A stretch of 64,000 bases of DNA from Lytechinus pictus (lineage: Eukaryota). Both the position numbers and the translations under genes were made by a program. The notes below the pieces were generated by a model. It was not told the origin of the DNA. It made no database searches and saw only the letters and a list, made by a program, of their open reading frames with translations. This document shows positions 4,311 through 59,074 of this stretch, in pieces; the first letter of the stretch is position 1; the number at the start of each line of letters is the position of its first letter. The stretch is from contig NC_087245.1 of assembly GCF_037042905.1 (NCBI RefSeq), positions 806,001 through 870,000 of the forward strand. The letters run 5' to 3'.

Positions 4311-4313
<3 letters not shown>

Positions 4314-4511
4314 TTTATTGGTTGGATTGCTTAACTAAGCTAGTCGTACAGACTGTTTCACCCTAAGGCTCATCATCGCTGATGAGCCTTAGGGTGAAAC
4401 AGTCTGTACGACTAGCTTAATTAAGCAATCCAACCAATAAATTATTTATACTCAGCTCCTACACAGTCGAGCACTATTAGATATTGCAGTATATCACTAT
4501 ATACTTACCTA

Positions 4512-4513
<2 letters not shown>
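4311..4513 (+). mobile_element. Penelope-like element fragment (pseudo-LTR) with inverted duplication
   Basis: ~65-bp inverted repeat (4311-4375 vs 4380-4444, one mismatch) inserted in (TA)n and containing a hammerhead core. Confidence 0.7.
4376..4411 (+). ncRNA. Minimal type I hammerhead ribozyme
   Basis: tcg-CTGATGA-gccttagggt-GAAAC-agtct-GTA-cga: full catalytic core, short stems I and II, near-palindromic stem III, GUA cleavage triplet at 4406-4408. Confidence 0.75.
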
Positions 4514-4596
<83 letters not shown>

Positions 4597-4597
<1 letters not shown>

Positions 4598-5041
4598 CGC
4601 CTACCATTGTTCCCTTCATCCATTTCTTTCACACAATATTTAAATAAAAGAGTTGCCAAAGCTGTAGTACATGTATAACTTCACACATTTGTATACTTTC
4701 TCCCATACGTGTACTGTATCAAATCAATAGCTTTGATCCAGCTGAGGCATGGCGGCTTGTCATTGTTCAAAACCCACCTTCACCCGACAAAGGAAATTAT
4801 AATTGGTATGGTGTCGAAAATCTGTCTATCTGACGGTCAATTGGATCGGGGTCGCTCTAGCCACTAACCCGTCTCTGTGGTCTAGTGGTTAAGGCACCGG
4901 CGTTCAAAGCTGGGGGCCCGGGTTCGATTCCCGGCAGAGACATTTTTTCGGCATCACCAATTTTTCCAAAAAGGGTAGATAGCTCTGGGGAACCTTGATT
5001 TAAGCTACGCCTACCATTGTTCTCTTCATCCATTTCTTTCA

Positions 5042-5044
<3 letters not shown>
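4597..5044 (+). mobile_element. (TA)n-inserted element with 38-bp terminal direct repeats carrying a tRNA-like gene
   Basis: acgcctaccattgttc(c/t)cttcatccatttctttcacac at 4597-4634 and 5007-5044, flanked by TA repeats on both sides. Confidence 0.75.
4871..4942 (+). tRNA. tRNA-like gene with UCA anticodon (opal-suppressor-like; tRNA-Glu-like body)
   Basis: Acceptor GTCTCTG/CAGAGAC, D stem GTCT/AGGC, anticodon stem CCGGC/GCTGG with loop GTTCAAA, T arm CCGGG-TTCGATT-CCCGG, then TTTTTT at 4943-4948. Confidence 0.7.
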
Positions 5045-5097
<53 letters not shown>

Positions 5098-18110: not shown

Positions 18111-21100
18111 TATGGGTTTACTGACGGTAATTTGGTCTAATATCACTTGGTCTAATCATCATATGGGCTAACAACATTCGGGCCAAACCCACTTAGTCCA
18201 ATTTTCTTTTGGTCTAATGACCACTTGATCTAATAGCCATATGGTCTAATGACCACTTGGTCTAACAGCCCATTGGTCTAATAGCCACTTGGTCTAATGA
18301 TCACTTGGTCTAATGACCACTTGGTCTAATAGCCACTTGGTCTAATGCCTAGTTGGGCTAATCGTCACTTTGTCTAATTTTCATTTGGTCTAATTTCCAT
18401 TTCGTCTAATGTTTTTTATTGTCACTTGGTCTAATTGCATTAGGTCTAATACCAGTTGGTCTAATAGTCGGTTAATCTAATACTAGTTGGTCTAATCCTC
18501 ACTTGGTCTAATGTGCAGTTGGTCTAATATGCGGTTGGTCTAATGTGCAGTTGGTCTAATATGCAGTTGGTCTAATGTGGTCATTACACCAATTGGGTAT
18601 TAGACCAAGTGGAAATTAGACCAAACGGTCATTAGACTATGTGACAATTAGTCGAAATGAAAATTGGACCAAGTGGAAATTAGCCGAAGTGGAAATTAGA
18701 CCAAGTGGTGTTAGACTAACTGGAAATTAGACTAAATGGTTTTAGCCCAACTGCTGATTAGACGAAGTGGATATTACACGAAGTGGTCATTAGACCAAAT
18801 GAAAATTAGACCATATGGCTATTAGACCAACTGGTTATTAGACCAATTGCAGGGGCGGATCCAGCCTTCGCCAATAGGGGGGGGGGGCCCGGATTTTTTT
18901 TCAGCCATATTTTACCCGATCGGCCGCTCGAAGATGATTTTTGGTTTCATTGAAGGGGTAGTCCTATAAAAGTCACTTCTTAGCTTTATATGAATAAACA
19001 TTAATATATAATATCCTTATTTATATAATGCGAGCGCGAAGCGCGAGCTAATTTTTTTTTTGAAATCTTGTGTATTTTTTCCTAAAATCATGAACATTCT
19101 GGGCGATGTTTGCTATCCTGAAAAAGATGTGTATGCAAATGAATAACTACTACGAACGTGAAGCGCGAGCAGAAATGAATTGATGGAAAAGGTATATGTT
19201 AAAGATTGCTTGCAGTTAGCCACGAAGACGTTACATATTTTAAAAATCCAATAATGCGAGCGCAAAGCGCGAGATGAAATTTTTTGACATTTTTACCTAA
19301 GAAATAGAAATTCTAAGCACTTTTTGTAACTCAAACAGAATTGGTATATAACTAAACAGTTGATGCGAGCGCGAGATTTAGACCTACTAAACGAGACACT
19401 CTATTTACGTTTTGTGAATCATGAAAAGGATGAGTAAGTGGGGATCTTCCTTACATTAATAATGCGAGCGCAGAGCGCGAGCAGAAAATTTTTATTTACG
19501 TTTTTAACTCATTATCGAAAAGGTACCTGTTAAGGACTGCTATTGCACTTAGTCATGAAGACATTACATATTTCAACAATCAAATAATGCGAGCGCGAAC
19601 CGCGAGCTGAAAAAAAATCACATTTCTACATAAAGAATGTAAAATTTTAATCAATTTTTGTAATCGTGAACAGGATAAGTATATAACTAAACAATTTATT
19701 GATGCGAAGCGCGAGCGGGAAAAATTGAGATTTAGACCTAAAACGGGACACTCTATTCATGTTTTGTAAATCATGAAAAGAATGAGAAATTGGAAATCTT
19801 CCTACATTAATATTGCGAGCGCAAAGCGCGAGCCGAAATTTTTAATATACGTTTTGATCTAATAAAAAAATTATCTGTTAACGGCTGCTTGCAGTTTGCC
19901 CTGAAGACGTTATATATTTCAACAATCAAATAATGCGAGCGCGAAGCGCGATATGAAAATGTTGACATTTCTACCTGAAGAATGGAAATTTTAAGCACTT
20001 TTTGTAATCGTGAAAAGGATAAGTATGTAACTAAACAATCGATGCGAGCGCGAAGCGCTAGCGGAAAAAATCGAGATTTACACCTAAAAATGGGACACTC
20101 GATCTATTCATGTTTTGCAAATCATGAAAAGGATGAGTGATTGGAAATCTTCCTACGTTAATATTGCGAGCGTAAAGCGTGAGCAGAAAATTTTTGATGT
20201 TGTGATATGAAACTGGATAATGATTTAAACAGAGAACAACTTAGCTGTATATCTGAATAACATGCGCGCACGTGTTTCAGATTTAGACCTAGAATCTGAG
20301 TGTGCATTCTAAATACCTTTTTTATCATGAAAATCGATAAAGTGAGCGCAAAGCGCGAGCTTAAAATATTTGATATTCCGATCTGAAAAGGATCAATTTA
20401 AGCTCTGTATTTCAAGCACTTTGTAGGAAAATTGTTAGGTGGATATGGATCAAATTAAAAAAAGAGCTTATATGTTTCATTATTATTACTTTGAGTTTTG
20501 ACATAGGACCAGGACATTCCAAGAACATTATGTCATCATATGAAAATGATGACTATATCTTTTCATTTCTCTTCCTAAGCGCGAGATGAAACTTGTCGAT
20601 ATTCCATTATGAAAAAGGGACTTATTAATCTAATAAGCCTAATGTGAGAGCGCGAAATCTGTTAATATTATTGCCTGAAAACTGGACATTTAAAGCATTT
20701 TTGTATTTATGAATAAGATGCATGAGTTAATATATTTTCAACAATCAATGCGAACGCAAATCGCGAGCCAAAATTTTAATATTCAGACCATAAAACAAAA
20801 GATTTACAGAGCGCTTTTTAAAAATCAATTTGTAAATCATACAAAATAATGAAAGTTCGATTTCCAAGCTGAAATATGTTTTCTATGTTGACTTAAAATT
20901 TTGATATTTCAAGCTCCATATTGATATGTAAATCACCTAACAGGCAATGCGAGCGCGCAGCTCGAGCAAAAAAATTTCATAGTGACATAAAAGATTTTAA
21001 AAATTATTTTCCTAGTCTTCTCATCTTATTTTATTCACTAGTCTTCATCTAAATGTGTTTCCCCTTCTTTTTTCTCCTCTCTATTCCCTTCTTTTTCTTT

Positions 21101-21352
21101 TTTTTTCTTTCTTTCCCCTTTTTTCTTTTTTTTTTTGCTCCGCCGCGTGAATAGGGGGGGGGGGGGGGCCGGGCCCCTCGGCCCCCCCCCCCCTGGATCC
21201 GCCTATGCAATTGGATATTAGACCAAGTGGTCATTAGACCAATTGGATATTAGACGAACTGGTTGTAGACGAAATGAGTTTAGACTAAGTGAAGTTGGAC
21301 GAACTGATTAGTAGACCAAGTGGTATTAGACCATACGATAATTAACCCCGTA
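18111..21352. mobile_element. Foldback-type MITE built of TTGGTCTAA / TTAGACCAA repeats
   Basis: Left half has many ttggtctaa units, right half the inverse; ends tatgggttta.../...taaccccgta; interrupted by the element at 18851. Confidence 0.7.
18851..21206. mobile_element. Poly-G/poly-C MITE with GCGAGCGCGAAGCGCGAG internal repeats
   Basis: aggggcggatccag ... ctggatccgcctat TIRs, internal G/C runs, repeated gcgagcgcgaagcgcgag motif and a ~350-bp internal duplication. Confidence 0.75.
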
Positions 21353-27286: not shown

Positions 27287-28108
27287 CTAAGGGTTAAAGA
27301 TGAAATCCCCTAAACGTTGGTCTATAACGCCGGTGATCCGCTTGACTGCATTCGGAGGAACAATTACTTGCTTGTGCAAATGAACCCGGGCAATCTGCCG
27401 CCCAGGGTCATCACTATACCAAAGTGGAATCCTCTGACCTCCCAACTGCATATGCGGATCTAGGAGGTGAATCGCAGCCTTGCGCTTGCTGAGGAAATCT
27501 AATCCCAGGAGCATATGATCAGCTATAGGGGCTACATATACTTCCTCCGAGAACGTCTGGTTCCCAAGCTCTATGGAAAGGGGACCGACAATTGTCCCTC
27601 TCATCTTCATATCCCGTCCCGCTGCATGTAGGATCACTCCTCTCAGTTTAGGGGGCTGGGGGTCCAGTGACTGCAGGAGCCTATCCGAGATGATGGACAC
27701 CTCGGCTGCGGTATCGACAACTGCGCTTACTGGCTGCCCCCCTATAACAACTGAGACCTTGAGAGTAGAGCGCGACTCCAACCTACATACCACTACCTCT
27801 TCAATCTCGCTTGCACACCCAAGCCCTGTGAGAGCATCTGGAACTGATTCCAGAATGGCTTCACCCAGGTCTGATATTCGGGTGTTCGAGGGACCAACTG
27901 GATCCCCCGCCGCAGCCTCTACATAAGTAGCTATTCCGGTTACATTATTCCCTGGGACTATCAGGCGCTCCGACACGCCCTCTGTTATTCCTTCAGATGA
28001 GCCTACGGATGGCCCCTCTGAGCTGCTTGCTAGCTTGGAACCCTCTATTTGGCCTCTGGCGGTGGGGGCCGGTGGCTGGCCAGCTCCTCCGACCCGTTGG
28101 AGTTTTCC
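27287..28108 (-). CDS. Retropepsin (aspartic protease) in the -1 frame relative to gag; pol truncated
   Basis: VSAVVDTAAEVSII catalytic motif and MLLGLDFL; ORF overlaps the gag end; stop after ...RLGDFIFNP. Confidence 0.85.
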   Translation of the reverse strand, partial: GKLQRVGGAGQPPAPTARGQIEGSKLASSSEGPSVGSSEGITEGVSERLIVPGNNVTGIATYVEAAAGDPVGPSNTRISDLGEAILESVPDALTGLGCASEIEEVVVCRLESRSTLKVSVVIGGQPVSAVVDTAAEVSIISDRLLQSLDPQPPKLRGVILHAAGRDMKMRGTIVGPLSIELGNQTFSEEVYVAPIADHMLLGLDFLSKRKAAIHLLDPHMQLGGQRIPLWYSDDPGRQIARVHLHKQVIVPPNAVKRITGVIDQRLGDFIFNP

Positions 28109-29745
28109 TCCTCCTGGTCCCCTACAAAGGAAACTTGTACCTTGGCCCTGTTTTCCTGGACCGAAGGACAATTGTTCCTGTAGTGGCCAATCCCGCCGCA
28201 CTCATAGCACCGGTCCCGACCGGGTGACCTCCCGCGTTCACGCGCTGGTTGGGGCCTAGTCTGGATAGCCTCCAGGACCTTCTTGAGGTCCCGTTCCAAA
28301 CCACCCAGACGCTGCAGATCCCGCTCGATGTGGCCCAAGCGTTCATCGGTCTTGCGTTCTAGGTTCACCAACCTTTGCTCAAGGGCTGCATTGTTCCCTT
28401 GGGGTAGTTCCACCTTACGGACCTCCCCTTCATTAGCCTTAGACACTGCCTTGGGACGCCCGTACATTGCGCGGTGCACGTGTTGGTGCCACTCAATATA
28501 CTTAAGCGCCTCATTCACGGTAGATGGATTCCGCGTAAGCGCGTGGCACCCCGCCTCTCGGTTGAGGGCGCCCTGGCACAGGCGAAGGACCGCCTGTCTA
28601 TTCGGGTAGGACCCATTGACCCCTGGAAAAGCACGCGCTGCTAGCTGGAGCACCCGGTCTGCCCAGTCTGGCAGGGATTCAGTGGGTCCCTGCTTGGCTG
28701 CCACAAACTCCAGCTGAGCAGATTCAGAGAGCCCTTCCTCCCCGAACCTGTGCTGCAGCCGGGCCACTAGACCTGCATATGGCATATTTGGCTCTTGGTC
28801 CAAGACCATTAGCAAATAATCTTCAGCCTTCCCTTTCAGGCCCCAGTATAGCTGGCTTACGCGCTCCATTGCAGTCCAATTATGGTGATCAGCAAAGGCG
28901 GAGAACTTTCTGAAGAAAGCCCTCCAGTTACCCTTGCCGTTGAAAGTGAGGGACTTTGGCAGCGTGTAATATGGTAATCCACCACCAGTCCCCCTTCCTG
29001 AGGAACCACTAGAATTCGCAGGTGATGCAGCCGGGCTACTAAGCGGCGAAGATGAACTGTACTGGGCTGGGCGTGTCATACCCGCCCGCACATTCCTTGC
29101 GCTGTAATCTGGGGTAGGGGGTGGGGCCAAGGAGCCCCTTCCTTCACCTACCTTGGACCTCATGGCTACCGCTTGCTTGGTGGTGGGGTCATCGCCCCCA
29201 GACCATTCGCTTGAATCGCCACTCGCCTGCATAAATCTATTGACAGAGGCACCATTAGCCTCCTCGCCAACTAGATTCCTGAGCCTAAACCTAGGCTCTA
29301 CACCACTCCCCATATCTCCCCCTCTGGTGCTTGGGGGCTCATGCCCCCGCTCCTCCCGGAAGTGAGATGAGCTGGTGCCCCAGGACCCACTAGACTGGTT
29401 ACTTTGACTTGACCTAGGGGGCTGGTGTTGGTCATAGGGGTAAACACCCCTGGAACCTGCCACCCCATTCAGGTCAGACTCGCTACGGGTGCCCGCAGTG
29501 ATGCGCCCCCTAGGGGTAATAAAAATACTGCCCTCTACCCCCTGGGTGCCCCCCGAAAAGTCTACTCTTTGTGCTAGCTCCCTATTGCTGCATAGCGCTG
29601 GGCTGCTTTCGAAAAGCTCGGGGGTTATCTCCCCATGATCAAGTCTAATCCCCTGGATTATCCCTGCTAGAGCTGGACTTAGCCCTAGCAACCTAAACTC
29701 CTCAAAGGAGCACACATTAATGGGGATTTTCTCTTCCCCGTCCAT
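28045..29745 (-). CDS. gag: Gag polyprotein, 566 aa
   Basis: Capsid-like LPKSLTFNGKGNWRAFFRKF...KQGPTESLPDWADRV, coiled coil, CCHC knuckle CYECGGIGHYRNNC; intact ORF. Confidence 0.92.
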   Translation of the reverse strand: MDGEEKIPINVCSFEEFRLLGLSPALAGIIQGIRLDHGEITPELFESSPALCSNRELAQRVDFSGGTQGVEGSIFITPRGRITAGTRSESDLNGVAGSRGVYPYDQHQPPRSSQSNQSSGSWGTSSSHFREERGHEPPSTRGGDMGSGVEPRFRLRNLVGEEANGASVNRFMQASGDSSEWSGGDDPTTKQAVAMRSKVGEGRGSLAPPPTPDYSARNVRAGMTRPAQYSSSSPLSSPAASPANSSGSSGRGTGGGLPYYTLPKSLTFNGKGNWRAFFRKFSAFADHHNWTAMERVSQLYWGLKGKAEDYLLMVLDQEPNMPYAGLVARLQHRFGEEGLSESAQLEFVAAKQGPTESLPDWADRVLQLAARAFPGVNGSYPNRQAVLRLCQGALNREAGCHALTRNPSTVNEALKYIEWHQHVHRAMYGRPKAVSKANEGEVRKVELPQGNNAALEQRLVNLERKTDERLGHIERDLQRLGGLERDLKKVLEAIQTRPQPARERGRSPGRDRCYECGGIGHYRNNCPSVQENRAKVQVSFVGDQEEENSNGSEELASHRPPPPEAK

Positions 29746-29779
29746 GTTGTGCTTACCCTAATTGGTGTTATCCTAGCAA

Positions 29780-40700: not shown

Positions 40701-42229
40701 ATGCGGTTAATTAGTCGTCATTCCAATTGTTTAAGTTCTTGGTAGAAATATGTTGAATAAATCTAATTTCATATATTGTACAAAAGAACATGGGATATGA
40801 CATCATCAGCCCACCTAATGAATATTCATGAGACATGCCTAAATAAAACTGTTTCATGGGAATATTGCAAATCCTTAAAATTCAACTTAACTTCGTTATT
40901 TGTCATCCGATTTTGAATAAATTTTAAGCATTTTGTTTTGTGAATTTTACTCTATTTATTGATTATCTCTAGCGTTGACCTCCCCTTCAATTATTTTCTT
41001 GTATTGTTAGAAAGAGATGGATGAAGTAGAATAATACGTTCATGCTTATATTTTTATTCATTACAATATCTCTTTGAAATTCAACCCGGCTTCCTCACAA
41101 CCATTAAGCTCTAAGAGTGTTAGGTGTGTCCTGTATATTTCAACACGTACCCTTTTAAATATAGTCATTTTTTTATTATTCATCCTGTTTTTTATGAAAA
41201 ATAAGTGGCGAACAAACAAAACAAAAATGATAATTGAAATTTAAAAGAGCGCATGAAAAAGAAATAACCCTGAAAACGAACAATAGTCCTCAAAATATAA
41301 GTTGCCCATTTTGGGGTCAATAATTTTTCGCATTTTTCAGTTCGCGCTTTGCTCCTAGTTTTGATCTAGTACGTATAGTACCCTTTCTCGTAGAAATAGA
41401 AGCTATCAAACTTAAAACCTCTGAGTCTCAGTAGGCATAACCCCCCCCCCCCCTCGCTGATATAGACCTACACAATGGGACAGGGTGAAATATAATTTTG
41501 AAATAGGGCCTATATGTCACAATCTAGCTATCACAAAATTAAATTTTCATATAAAAAATTGTACTTTTTAAAATGAATGGTGCCCTTTTAAGCCATATGG
41601 CCTTCTAAAAATATAAGACTCAATACGCTACTGACCTCTCCCGAAACTGAAAAAAAAGATAAATCCCTCACTGGAAATAAAAAAATTAGTCTGTGGTACA
41701 AACAGGGCTTCCATACAAGTACTGAAGGAAACTAATTTTTTCATGTACTGTACCACAGAAAATACACCAGTAGCGTCTGTGATACAGTTTCAGTCATATT
41801 TCTGGGGTGGCTGCATGAGAAGTACCGCAGGAAATTTTGAAAGTATAGCACTGGGGTTGCCATAGAATTTTAGAAGTGCCTATATTGAGTCCTGCAGGAA
41901 ATTTCAAAATTTTCATTTACCACAGAAGTATCACAGGGTTTTCATAGAAGTGTCTTTAATAGGATCGAGTACTGCAGGAAATTTCAAAATGTTCATGTAC
42001 CACAGAAGTATCACAGGGTTTCCATAGAAGTGCTTAGTAATAGGAGTACTGCAGGAAATTTAAAAAATGTTCATATACAACAGAAGTATCGCAGGGTTGT
42101 CATAGAAGTACTGCAGGATATTTTAGAATTTTCATGTACAACAGAAGTACGACATAACTATCACAGAGTGATATTGTATACAGTTATGTACAACAGAAGT
42201 ATTACACAGGTACGACAGAGTACCATTAA

Positions 42230-42800
42230 GGTATTGCATGAAATTTTCATATTTTTATGTACCACAGAAGTAGAACTATCACAGAGTGATACCACAGGAG
42301 TCCTGTAGTAATTCCTTATACAGTTTTGTACAACAGAAGTATCACACAGGTACGACAGAGTACCATTAAGGTATTGCATGAAATTTTCATATTTTTATGT
42401 ACCACAGAAGTATGACAGAACTATCACAGAGTGATACCACAGAAGTCCTGTTGTAATTCTATATACAGTTTTGTACAACAGCAGTATCACACAGGTACGA
42501 CAGAGTACCATTAAGGTATTGCATGAAATTTTCATATTTTCCTGTACCACAGAAGTATGACAGAACTATCACAGAGTGATACCACAGAAGTCCTGTTGTA
42601 GTTCTATATACAGTTTTGTACAACAGAAGTATCACACAGGTACGACAGAGTACCATTAAGGTATTGCAGGAAATTTTCATATTTTCCTGTACCACAGAAG
42701 TATGACAGAACTATCACAGAGTGATACCACAGAAGTCCTGTGGTAATTCTGAGGTACCGTCGTGTATGACAGAAGTATCACACAGGTACAACAGAGTACC
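42230..42800. repeat. ~119-bp tandem subterminal repeats of the CACTA-like element
   Basis: Near-identical units gtattgcatgaaattttcat...cacaggtacgacagagtaccattaag repeated 4-5 times. Confidence 0.85.
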
Positions 42801-43956
42801 ACTAAAGTACTGCAGGAATTTTTTGTAAGGGTGGGTCCACACGCAACACAACACTACACACTGGCACCAAAAACCAACCTATTAGGTATGCAATACACAA
42901 CCAATGGTCGTGCACAGTTGCACTGGATCTAACGTCAAACCCGGAAATGATCGGGCGGTCTAACTGGTTAGATCTCGATAATTACCGTGAATTCTACCCA
43001 GCTTCGAGTACAAAACGTTCCCCCAAAATTTGGACAAAACACCCTAAAACACCACACAAAATTCAAAATATCCGAAATAGGCAGGCGAGAGAGGATTGGG
43101 ATAATGCCCTACCTTTGTTGGTCAGTCTGGCCTCCCGTCCTACTCGCCCAAATAATCGCCGTTGTTTACCCGTATACGTGCGATGGATTGGTCCGGCCTG
43201 ACGTCAGTTCGGATCTCAAACTAGACCCAAACGTTGAGCCGACGATGTAAAACAAGATGGCGCCGGTCGGTGGCAGAGAGAACCAATAATATCTCTCCGC
43301 CAATAGATCGCCGTGAAATCTTGGATCGGGCCGCGCGCTTTTACCTAGCCGGAACACACACACTCTTACGCACCTCTCACCCCAACAAAAATAGTTCACT
43401 CACAAATCACTCGCAAAACGACACAAAAATCATCCAAACACCCAAAATCACAAGCAAATCACACAATCACACCAACGTGAAACACAGTCCACAACTAAAA
43501 ACGGATATTAAAGCACAAAACTAAAACAAACTCACAACACAACAACACGTGTGTTCTCCCCCCCTTTCTGGAAATTTCCGTCACGGGACCGGAACTACCA
43601 TCAGTCCCCGCGACGAAAACCTTACCAAAAAAGACAGGGGACGATTGCCTAAATATGTCCCAAATCAAGATTTAACCTCTCAATTCAGGACAATCGCAAA
43701 CATGAAACAAGGGACAATATTCATAGAATATACGCAATACGACAAGGCTCTGAATCTAGCCTTATCAACTGTAATTAGCCCAATCTAAAACTGATTTCTC
43801 GTACTCGAGCGGCGACCATTTCCCCCCACGCAGCGGGGCATAGGGATTTGCTCGTCCGATGCGCAATAGGGGGCCGTTAGCTCGCCGCGAGACAATTATA
43901 CCCCAATTAATTTCAATAATTTGGCCTAAAATGCCCACAAAAGCAGGCACAGTCAG

Positions 43957-46626: not shown

Positions 46627-47711
46627 GGCCGCGCGCGTATGAGTCGCCGATTGTACCAATATTATATAGAACAATTATTTGTTATATAATCATTATTTAT
46701 TAAATAATAACTATTATTTATATATAATTTACATTTTATTTGTAAATAACTACTATTATATAAAATAACGTTTCTAATTATTTATATATAATTCCAAGTA
46801 ATACTTCATTATTTGTAAATAATAATAGTTCGACATTCCATTATTTATAAATAATGATTATTTGTTTTTCATTATTTATAAATAATGATTATTTGTTTTT
46901 CATTATTTACAAATAATGATTATTTGTTTTCATTATTTATAAATAATGATTATTTGTTTTTTATTATTTATAAATAATTATTTTCGTTTTTCATTATTTA
47001 TAAATAATGACACTACATACTTCATTATTCATAAATAATTGCAATTCGTTTTTCCACTATTTATAAATAAGTTTTCTATTATTTATAAATAATAATTATT
47101 TATTAACAATGCCAGTGCACATTTCTTTATTTATAAATAATTTGTTGAGTTTTCCATTATTTATAAATAATGATTATTTGTTAAATAATGAATACGTCTA
47201 CTTCATTATTTATAAATAATGAAAAACGAAAATCATTATTTATAAATAATAAAAAACAAATAATCATCATTTATAAATAATGAAAAACAAATAATCATTA
47301 TTTATAAATAATGAAAAACAAATAATCATTATTTGTAAATAATGAAAAACAAATAATCATTATTTGTAAATAATGAAAAACAAATAATCATTACTTGTAA
47401 ATAATGAAAAACAAATCATCATTATTTATAAATAATGAAAAACAAATAATCATTATTTATAAATAATGAAAAACAAATAATCATTATTTATAAATAATGG
47501 AATGTCGAACTATTATTATTTACAAATAATGAAGTATTACTTGGAATTATTTATAAATAATTAGAAACGTTATTTTATATAATAGTAGTTATTTACAAAT
47601 AAAATGTAAATTATATATAAATAATAGTTATTATTTGATAAATAATGATTATATAACAAATAATTGTTCTATATAATATTGGTACAATCGGCGTCTCATA
47701 CGCGCGCGGCC
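46627..47711. repeat. ~1.1-kb AT-rich palindrome / foldback element
   Basis: ggccgcgcgcgtatgag(t/a)cgccgattgtaccaatattatatag... arms inverted over several hundred bp; internal 29-bp tandem cattatttataaataatgattatttgtttt. Confidence 0.9.
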
Positions 47712-58273: not shown

Positions 58274-59074
58274 TTTTTGTCTCACCTGCATAGCAGAGTG
58301 AGACTATAGGCGCCGCTTTTCCGACGGCGACGGCGACGGTGGCGGCGGCGTCAACACCAAATCTTAACCTGAGGTTAAGTTTTTGAAATGACAGCATAAC
58401 TTAGAAAGTATATGGACCTAGTTCATGAAACTTGGCCATAAGGTTAATCAAGTATTACTGAACATCCTGCCTGAGTTTCATGTCACATGACCAAGGTCAA
58501 AGGTCATTTAGGGTCAATGAACTTAGACCATGTTGGGGGAATCAACATCAAAATCTTAACCTAAGGTTAAGTTTTTGAAATGTCATCATAACTTAGAAAA
58601 TATATGGACCTAGTTCATGAAACTTATACATAAGGTTAATCAAGTATTACTGAACATCCTGTGCAAGTTTCAGGTCACATGATCAAGGTCAAAGGTCATT
58701 TAGGGTCAATGAACTTTGGCCAAATTGGGGTATTTGTTGAATTACAGCCATAAATTTGAAAGTGTGTTGGTCTAGTTCATAAAACTTGGACATAATAGTA
58801 ATCAAGTATCACTGAACATCCTGTGCGAGTTTCAGGTCACATGATCAAGGTCAAAGGTCATGTAAGGTCAAAGAACTTTGGCCACGTTGGGGGTATTTGT
58901 TGAATTGCCATCATATCTCTATAAGTGTATTGGTCTAGTTCATAAAACGTGGAAATAAGAGTAACCAAGTATCACTGAACATCTTGTGCGAGTTATAGTA
59001 GTTTTCAAAATCAGCACTGCTGCTATATTGAATCGCGTGATGCAGGTGAGACGGCCAGAGGCATTCCACTTGTT
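58274..59074 (+). mobile_element. Helentron-associated (Tsp/pearl-like) non-autonomous element
   Basis: T-run flanks, subterminal IR gtctcacctgca/tgcaggtgagac, GAC/GGC microsatellite, 3-4 tandem ~170-bp cores with aggtcaaaggtca. Confidence 0.7.

Follow-up and report, generated by a model that had tools for sequence, protein, structure and literature searches.

A complete tRNA-like gene within an abundant tandem repeat of TA microsatellites in Lytechinus pictus, with a putative role in making RNA rather than in decoding UGA

A complete tRNA gene with anticodon UCA, which would read the stop codon UGA, lies inside a short repeat in a TA microsatellite of Lytechinus pictus, and the locus raises the question of whether such a gene decodes UGA, is a passenger of a mobile repeat, or helps to make the repeat's own RNA. 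The window, that is, the whole 64,000-nt stretch analysed (contig NC_087245.1, positions 806,001 to 870,000, forward strand), contains a single tRNA gene identified by ARAGORN, at 4871-4942 on the plus strand (window coordinates), with anticodon tca; the 'SeC' label given by ARAGORN reflects the anticodon only. The tRNA-like cloverleaf is 72 nt long, forms 21 of 21 stem pairs, has a 7-bp acceptor, a 4-nt variable loop and discriminator A73, and does not encode CCA. It contains a Pol III A box (4878-4889, plus strand, by the usual definition of the box), a B box coinciding with the T loop (4922-4932, plus strand), and an anticodon loop (4902-4908, plus strand) with G32 at 4902, U33, and TCA at 4904-4906, the last being replaced by TCC in some old copies of the repeat and by ATC in an outside relative. 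A run of six T (4943-4948) follows the discriminator and a run of five T lies at 4961-4965; apart from these two runs, together spanning 4943-4965 on the plus strand, the repeat monomer has no run of at least four T in its sense strand. An earlier note, made from the sequence alone, had listed the length, pairing, anticodon, G32, A and B boxes, T6 and (TA)n setting of this cloverleaf, and all are as it described. With Rfam RF00005 the window tRNA scores 60.9 bits (E 9.8e-11), which is within the range of host Glu (62.2 and 59.5 bits) and Gly(TCC) (63.6 bits) genes; host Lys scores 75 bits. RNAfold on its own forms the acceptor, anticodon and T arms, with the D arm absent (z -2.38). The module is not a tRNA-Sec, as the note had also held: the acceptor is 7 bp, the variable loop is 4 nt, and there are no extended acceptor or T stems.

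The cloverleaf sits in a 448-nt stretch between (TA)n target tracts at 4514-4597 and 5045-5096. The first 38 nt of the stretch (4597-4634) agree with the last 38 (5007-5044) at 37 positions, and a C at 4613 is private to the window copy (T in 70 of 71 aligned pieces). The 38-bp direct repeats said to bound a mobile unit are therefore real as a match but are not termini: they are the overlap of a copy 1.09 monomers long. This copy comprises one 410-bp monomer of a non-coding tandem family, 5'-truncated at TA microhomology (4597-5006, plus strand), the first 38 bp of which (4597-4634, plus strand) are the monomer start and no true terminal repeat, and the start of the next monomer up to a first fixed 3' end (5007-5044, plus strand), 102 nt past the tRNA. 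Since the copy is 1.09 monomers cut at TA microhomology, the 38-bp repeat reflects the point at which copying happened to stop, and the length of the overlap varies from copy to copy. A second fixed 3'-end site, at which about half of all arms stop, corresponds to 4675-4687 (plus strand), about 53 nt past the first. Elsewhere in the window, a GC-rich block on the minus strand at 27287-29757, with a Gag-like frame bearing a zinc knuckle (570 aa) and an aspartyl-protease frame (304 aa), is part of an LTR retrotransposon, and minisatellite or tandem-repeat blocks, some of them in inverted pairs, occupy 18209-18846, 21208-21333, 41887-42823, 46805-47533 and 58351-58994.

The feature in the window is one copy of an abundant non-coding tandem repeat of 406-412 bp with about 2,000 genome-wide matches in TA microsatellites. 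A pattern covering the anticodon arm and T arm has 1,732 exact matches in the genome, an upstream 27-mer has 1,853 matches at up to two mismatches, and a 3'-end 27-mer has 2,170 matches, with 0 matches for each reversed-pattern control; these are counts of monomers, not of insertions. Of 1,544 candidates from a genome-wide search with the unit, 40 were scored and yielded 137 matches, in which full-length matches were 96-100% identical and often spaced 408-412 nt apart. No family copy examined reaches an ORF, and matches to PLE proteins (Penelope-like elements) are absent from the window and from 10 kb upstream; the linked RT/GIY-YIG ORF that the note had hoped to reach by extending copies did not turn up among the copies examined.

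The anatomy of the insertions is informative as to how the repeat moves. We aligned 226 arms from dispersed loci, which are not fully independent and include a few segmental duplicates, to a multimer reference. Two narrow 3' bins, one where the 38-nt repeat finishes and one about 53 nt beyond it, take in the ends of 179 of the 226 arms. (TA)4+ follows 186 of 226 arms overall, and 166 of the 169 that are at least 90% identical and stop at a canonical end. The 5' ends are spread around the whole monomer, with arm lengths from less than 100 to more than 1,700 nt; head-to-tail multimers are present, and head-to-head two-arm insertions are common, with a proper 3' end on each arm. In 14 of 15 multimer arms the monomers agree at common polymorphic sites, and in 7 of 15 private variants are present in every monomer, an agreement that fits repeated copying of one template and also fits a homogeneous source array. 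From 5' ends placed at random, 3' ends fixed at two sites in (TA)n, multimers and inverted arms we infer PLE-type mobilisation. The results thus bear out the earlier proposal of a mobile, retroelement-like family that carries its own tRNA-like gene and combines Penelope-type insertion anatomy with (TA)n targeting.

Two further features of the family concern its later history in the genome. An array in which a 406-bp monomer is repeated about 43 times, with very few variants (26 of the 38 full units read are identical) and a normal 3' end in (TA)n, lies at G000:C2:8866017-8883730 (L116, L260, L120) and is a satellite that arose from one insertion. Four separate copies (L191, L222, L246, L197) carry DNA-transposon insertions at one site in the anticodon stem (target equivalent to window 4898-4902). 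These insertions, about 1.2 kb long in L191 and L222, have ends that start CACAGTG and a 5-bp GC-rich duplication, and footprint-like extra bases are present at the equivalent site in L159, L160, L185 and L198. Judged by their termini, they are presumably Transib/RAG-like, and the shared site is probably the usual target preference of that DNA transposon.

In the parts of PMC8557442 consulted, EN+ PLEs are described as showing 5' truncation, partial tandems, an inverted 5' copy, tail extension and a (TA)n bias, and Neptune, Naiad and Chlamys/MRC1 resemble the unit in insertion anatomy, alternative tail end and (TA)n targeting, differing in that the unit is without an ORF and has an internal tRNA gene. 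The genome contains autonomous PLEs with open frames encoding RT and GIY-YIG, and these likewise end in (TA)n. One such frame, of 954 aa, has RT followed by a C-terminal GIY-YIG domain and appears to be Neptune-type from its domain order and cysteine motif, rather than from a tree. RT candidates were 606 in number, 150 of which were scored, with queries that did not target Naiads as such; 20 RT loci were then chosen across identity classes. These 20 loci and 16 GIY-YIG loci share no sequence with the unit, which occurs in them only as nested scraps in (TA)n. In the autonomous families sampled, 3' homology to the unit is limited to a short end motif, 6 nt long and common to the unit and two PLE families; other PLE families end differently, so that this sharing is weak. 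One autonomous PLE (L034/L036/L041) has an internal duplication of about 560 bp in its 3' UTR and alternative 3' ends at two sites separated by about 55 nt, one of them finishing in the 6-nt motif of the unit, a two-ended layout like that of the unit.

None of nine long autonomous PLE frames (896-1026 aa) contains an internal TGA; among the 20 longest frames TGA is the stop of 5, and no internal TGA recurs. Besides not carrying the unit, the 20 autonomous PLE loci have no need of UGA read-through. The link that the note had drawn to Naiad elements with in-frame UGA codons is accordingly not supported: the family copies examined have no ORF, and the consulted parts of PMC8557442 place the Naiad UGAs at conserved cysteines and attribute them to selenocysteine, with SECIS elements.

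Of the 20 autonomous PLE loci, 8 contain a hammerhead core, placed 73-201 nt ahead of the TA end. In the unit, neither a scan of both strands for a hammerhead core nor a search of a 4-mer of the unit with Rfam ribozyme models, at E up to 10, gave a match. A candidate relic hammerhead at 4742-4825, with half-cores that resemble PLE ones by eye, was dropped: against a matrix from 10 PLE hammerheads it scores 14.2, compared with 24-37 for real ones (both half-cores, p 0.08; right half alone, p 0.12). A near-perfect fold-back of about 140 bp with a minimal hammerhead core, which lies at 4313-4513 of the window in the adjoining (TA)n, is the inverted 3' end of a different PLE and is absent from the other loci examined.

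The closest known counterparts of the unit are animal non-LTR retrozymes. As far as they are described in the consulted parts of PMC7229834 and bioRxiv 10.64898/2026.07.22.740005, these are, like the unit, non-coding tandem monomers (170-400 bp), and they share with it dimers to large multimers, low GC and, as proposed for them, mobilisation by PLEs (PMC7229834). They differ in having a type I hammerhead in each monomer, where the unit has none and instead carries a tRNA-like gene with Pol III boxes and a terminator, and in that no sequence link to a PLE pLTR was found for the unit. The word tRNA does not occur in bioRxiv 10.64898/2026.07.22.740005, and the literature searched, which excludes supplements, Repbase and Dfam, where the family may be catalogued, does not describe a tRNA-bearing PLE parasite.

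Other systems share single features with the unit. In tRNA-derived SINEs, a tRNA-related module with A and B boxes is part of a short, high-copy, non-autonomous retroelement. The unit is likewise short, high-copy and non-autonomous and has such a module, but its module is internal, fully paired and followed by T6, and the unit forms multimers and inverted arms. Only 9 of 169 arms begin within 6 nt of tRNA +1, so the copies are not 5'-coterminal with the tRNA and the note's contention that the tRNA is internal, and not a SINE-like 5' head, is upheld. In mascRNA and menRNA, a tRNA fold within a longer RNA is a processing signal for RNases P and Z; the match of RF01684 to the unit is 28.9 bits, below the gathering score of 42.5, and the unit differs in having a full D arm and sitting in a mobile repeat, its own cleavage being putative. 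With tRNA-Sec and opal suppressors the unit has the UCA anticodon in common; it differs in its 7-bp acceptor, short variable arm, G32 and inconstant anticodon. We conclude that the unit resembles an animal non-LTR retrozyme, yet lacks the hammerhead that defines one, and that it is not a SINE, a tRNA-Sec or a Naiad.

Comparison with host tRNAs shows no clear donor. The element tRNA matches host Gly(TCC) at 49 of 72 positions and host Glu at 48 and 44 of 72, with Lys and Asn lower; the resemblance to tRNA-Glu that the note had seen in its body is therefore no closer than that to Gly(TCC). The anticodon loop agrees with that of Gly(TCC) at 5 of 7 positions, and at 6 of 7 in TCC copies. Relative to host Gly and Glu, 7-8 stem pairs are changed on both sides and all remain paired, acceptor pairs 2, 3, 5 and 6 being unlike both; such double changes could stem from another donor tRNA or from a SINE head. 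For Arg(TCT) as donor, a motif search gave 0 matches. Host tRNA clusters lie at G000:C4:9.70-9.74 Mb, C13:22.08-22.16 Mb and C16:2.59 Mb, and comprise Lys genes in tandem at a spacing of about 480 bp (mixed TTT and CTT, with some decayed copies having a TTA anticodon), Gly(TCC) with Asn, and Glu(TTC) in tandem.

The anticodon varies within the family. TCA is present in 56 of 56 top-scoring monomers and in 98 of the first 100 pattern matches, a set to which one array contributes 39. The corresponding TCC pattern has 47 genome matches, of which 21 are element copies and 26 are host Gly(TCC) genes. In a midpoint-rooted tree of 83 copies, from which the anticodon loop was left out, 9 of 10 TCC copies are at most 93% identical and sit on long basal branches; the tenth is a point mutant inside a young clade. 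Among copies not chosen for TCC, the old ones have TCA in 6 of 8 and TCC in 2 of 8, and the younger ones have TCA in 67 of 67 and TCC in 0 of 67. Two marine RNA runs contain relatives of the unit, each a single low-depth contig that may be DNA: in run X16 a 153-nt contig at depth 3, covering 4836-4971, has anticodon ATC, the remaining tRNA changes listed for it all falling outside the pairs, and in run X18 a contig at depth 2 has anticodon TCC. Searches for relatives in metagenome_contigs and viral_contigs gave 0 matches. Runs from organisms B, C and D, possibly close relatives, also contain the unit, and in organism B TCT accounts for about 9% of depth in run X10. That runs X10, X11 and X14 are RNA is a guess; the depth of about 150,000 in run X14 fits genomic copies, and a genomic tandem would give the same loop-back contig as is seen in run X13. 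Runs X17, X19 and X20 (share 0.07) are left out of these comparisons. G32 is present in nearly all copies, and U33A is present in all four monomers of one insertion and in a second, separate insertion. TCA is likely a tolerated point change that became fixed in the source lineage of recent bursts, and its identity as a stop-codon anticodon is most likely incidental.

Conservation of the tRNA above its flanks is modest. In 23 copies selected by the upstream anchor, with anchor columns omitted, mismatches number 28 in 1,645 cells for the tRNA versus 126 in 3,248 for the upstream part, the cells not being independent, and the 100 nt downstream come close to the tRNA in conservation (51 in 2,273). 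Between old (at most 93.5% identity) and young copies, frequency shifts of at least 30% occur at 6 of 174 upstream columns and, inside the tRNA, at anticodon position 36 only, where the choice of 7 of the 15 old copies for their TCC inflates the shift. Variants shared by four or more copies occur in 3 of 72 columns in the tRNA versus 14 of 175 upstream (Fisher p 0.41), and singleton rates are equal (0.0074 in the tRNA, 0.0071 upstream). All pairs are intact in 17 of the 23 copies; of the stem changes in this set, 8 break a pair, 5 keep it and 1 compensates. C5A, which breaks an acceptor pair, is present in three old insertions. Equal singletons, pair-breaking changes and the conserved downstream 100 nt together suggest that inserted copies decay neutrally and that source lineages are modestly constrained over the whole 3' half. 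The expectation that anticodon and stem pairing would prove conserved thus holds in part: TCA is constant in the young copies and TTC is not the consensus, yet individual copies undergo neutral decay and the family shows hardly any compensatory change.

The insertion anatomy makes it very probable that the unit is a ribozyme-free, retrozyme-like PLE parasite mobilised in trans. The tRNA fold may, at an even chance, be a cis-acting Pol III promoter combined with an RNase P site that gives unit-length RNA; promoter and RNase P/Z processing signal were among the roles that the note had offered, and they are still the leading candidates. A PLE-mobilised repeat with a tRNA fold that makes or cuts RNA, rather than decoding UGA, is the best explanation of the whole, although we would put it no higher than evenly balanced. 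According to this proposal, the A and B boxes in one monomer would direct Pol III to initiate at the tRNA, transcription would occasionally read through T6 and T5 and on through the rest of the monomer, which has no further T run, and host RNase P would cut ahead of the next tRNA, releasing unit-length RNA; the endonuclease of a host PLE would nick (TA)n, and its reverse transcriptase would prime at either end site and copy multimeric or circular RNA. The RNA-cutting job so proposed for the tRNA is that of the hammerhead in retrozymes, at a comparable distance from the 3' ends: the end of the tRNA lies 102 and 155 nt before the two 3' ends of the unit.

The proposal has weak points, which concern termination, RNase Z, ligation and the 5' ends. 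T6 followed by T5 should halt Pol III directly behind the tRNA, RNase Z would also cut and so drop the tRNA, and the ends left by RNase P do not suit the RtcB ligase route of retrozymes. In that route, according to the consulted part of PMC7229834, RtcB ligates ribozyme-made ends. A pile-up of 5' ends at tRNA +1 is unclear in the 169 arms (9 observed versus 5.0 expected, p 0.049 uncorrected, scan p 0.23). Three other signatures were considered and set aside: reverse-transcriptase stops at a modified A58 (5 ends versus 1.5 expected, p 0.017 uncorrected, scan p 0.23), a pile-up of ends after the discriminator (4 versus 5.2 expected), and precise loss of the tRNA, of which there is none among the joints listed. 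That a tRNA mimic has replaced the hammerhead in a class of Penelope parasites, the putative sizing of the RNA falling to host Pol III and RNases P and Z, is put forward tentatively, at slightly under even confidence.

Two alternatives dispute how the repeat moves. Rolling-circle elements have one fixed end, a variable opposite end and tandem arrays. If the repeat spread as DNA in this way, as a Helitron-like element or as a recombining satellite, these features of its copies would fit equally, as would the array of about 43 near-identical monomers, and the likeness to PLEs would be a coincidence. This is very improbable in view of two 3' ends about 50 nt apart, inverted arms with proper 3' ends and strict (TA)n targeting (the PLE pattern; PMC8557442), and in view of an autonomous PLE (L034/L036/L041) with the same two-ended layout. 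An ordinary tRNA-derived SINE, with a Pol III transcript running from the tRNA to the 3' tail and preceded by a chance duplication, would account for the order of tRNA head, 100-nt body and TA-rich end, and for the slight excess of 5' ends near tRNA +1; it is nevertheless very unlikely, given that 160 of 169 arms start more than 6 nt from tRNA +1, that the 274 nt upstream and additional complete monomers form part of the arms, and that a terminator lies directly behind the head. The 5'-end distribution largely refutes a plain SINE.

The other two alternatives accept a mobile repeat and dispute what its tRNA does. The repeat may be a PLE parasite in which the tRNA is a passenger, a captured SINE head or tRNA copy that is intact because the family is young, with the 3' half conserved for recognition by reverse transcriptase and the RNA supplied by Pol II read-through of arrays. 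A non-significant shared-variant test, equal singleton decay, a downstream part about as conserved as the tRNA, the spread of the C5A and U33A variants, the absent 5'-end signature and the terminators directly behind the tRNA all favour a passenger; the restriction of the old/young shift to anticodon position 36 within the tRNA, against 6 of 174 columns upstream, the confinement of the listed tRNA changes in the X16 relative to unpaired positions, and an Rfam score equal to that of host genes speak against it, and we consider it possible but rather unlikely. Alternatively, the module could be a working opal-suppressor tRNA gene that lets a partner retroelement or the host read UGA, as the earlier note had suggested. 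Constant TCA in the 67 younger copies and near-constant TCA among the first 100 pattern matches, intact boxes and terminator, and the host-like Rfam score would fit such a gene. Against it stand the TCC, ATC and TCT variants in the family and its relatives, the nearly universal G32, the spreading U33A variant, PLE frames in which TGA serves as a stop and does not recur internally (0 of 9 long frames), the departure of four acceptor pairs from host Gly and Glu, the attribution of Naiad UGAs to Sec and SECIS (in the part of PMC8557442 consulted), and the lack of a CCA-bearing form among the loose ends listed, which derive from contigs. Since the anticodon drifts while the fold persists, a suppressor role is very unlikely. 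A mixed case, in which a tRNA-mimic parasite releases charged UCA tRNA from some of its approximately 1,700 intact-looking copies as a by-product and so raises UGA read-through, is improbable.

The tRNA annotation of the genome is flooded by about 1,700 false 'SeC/suppressor' genes that score like real tRNAs. For the question of how PLEs without hammerheads make a defined RNA template, the unit is a minimal, directly testable substrate; PMC8557442 notes the absence of hammerheads from Naiads and the need for an in vitro system to work out the mechanism. What deserves testing is the tRNA that takes the place of the ribozyme of retrozymes: if the proposal is true, the host tRNA machinery would be a route to unit-length or circular RNA.
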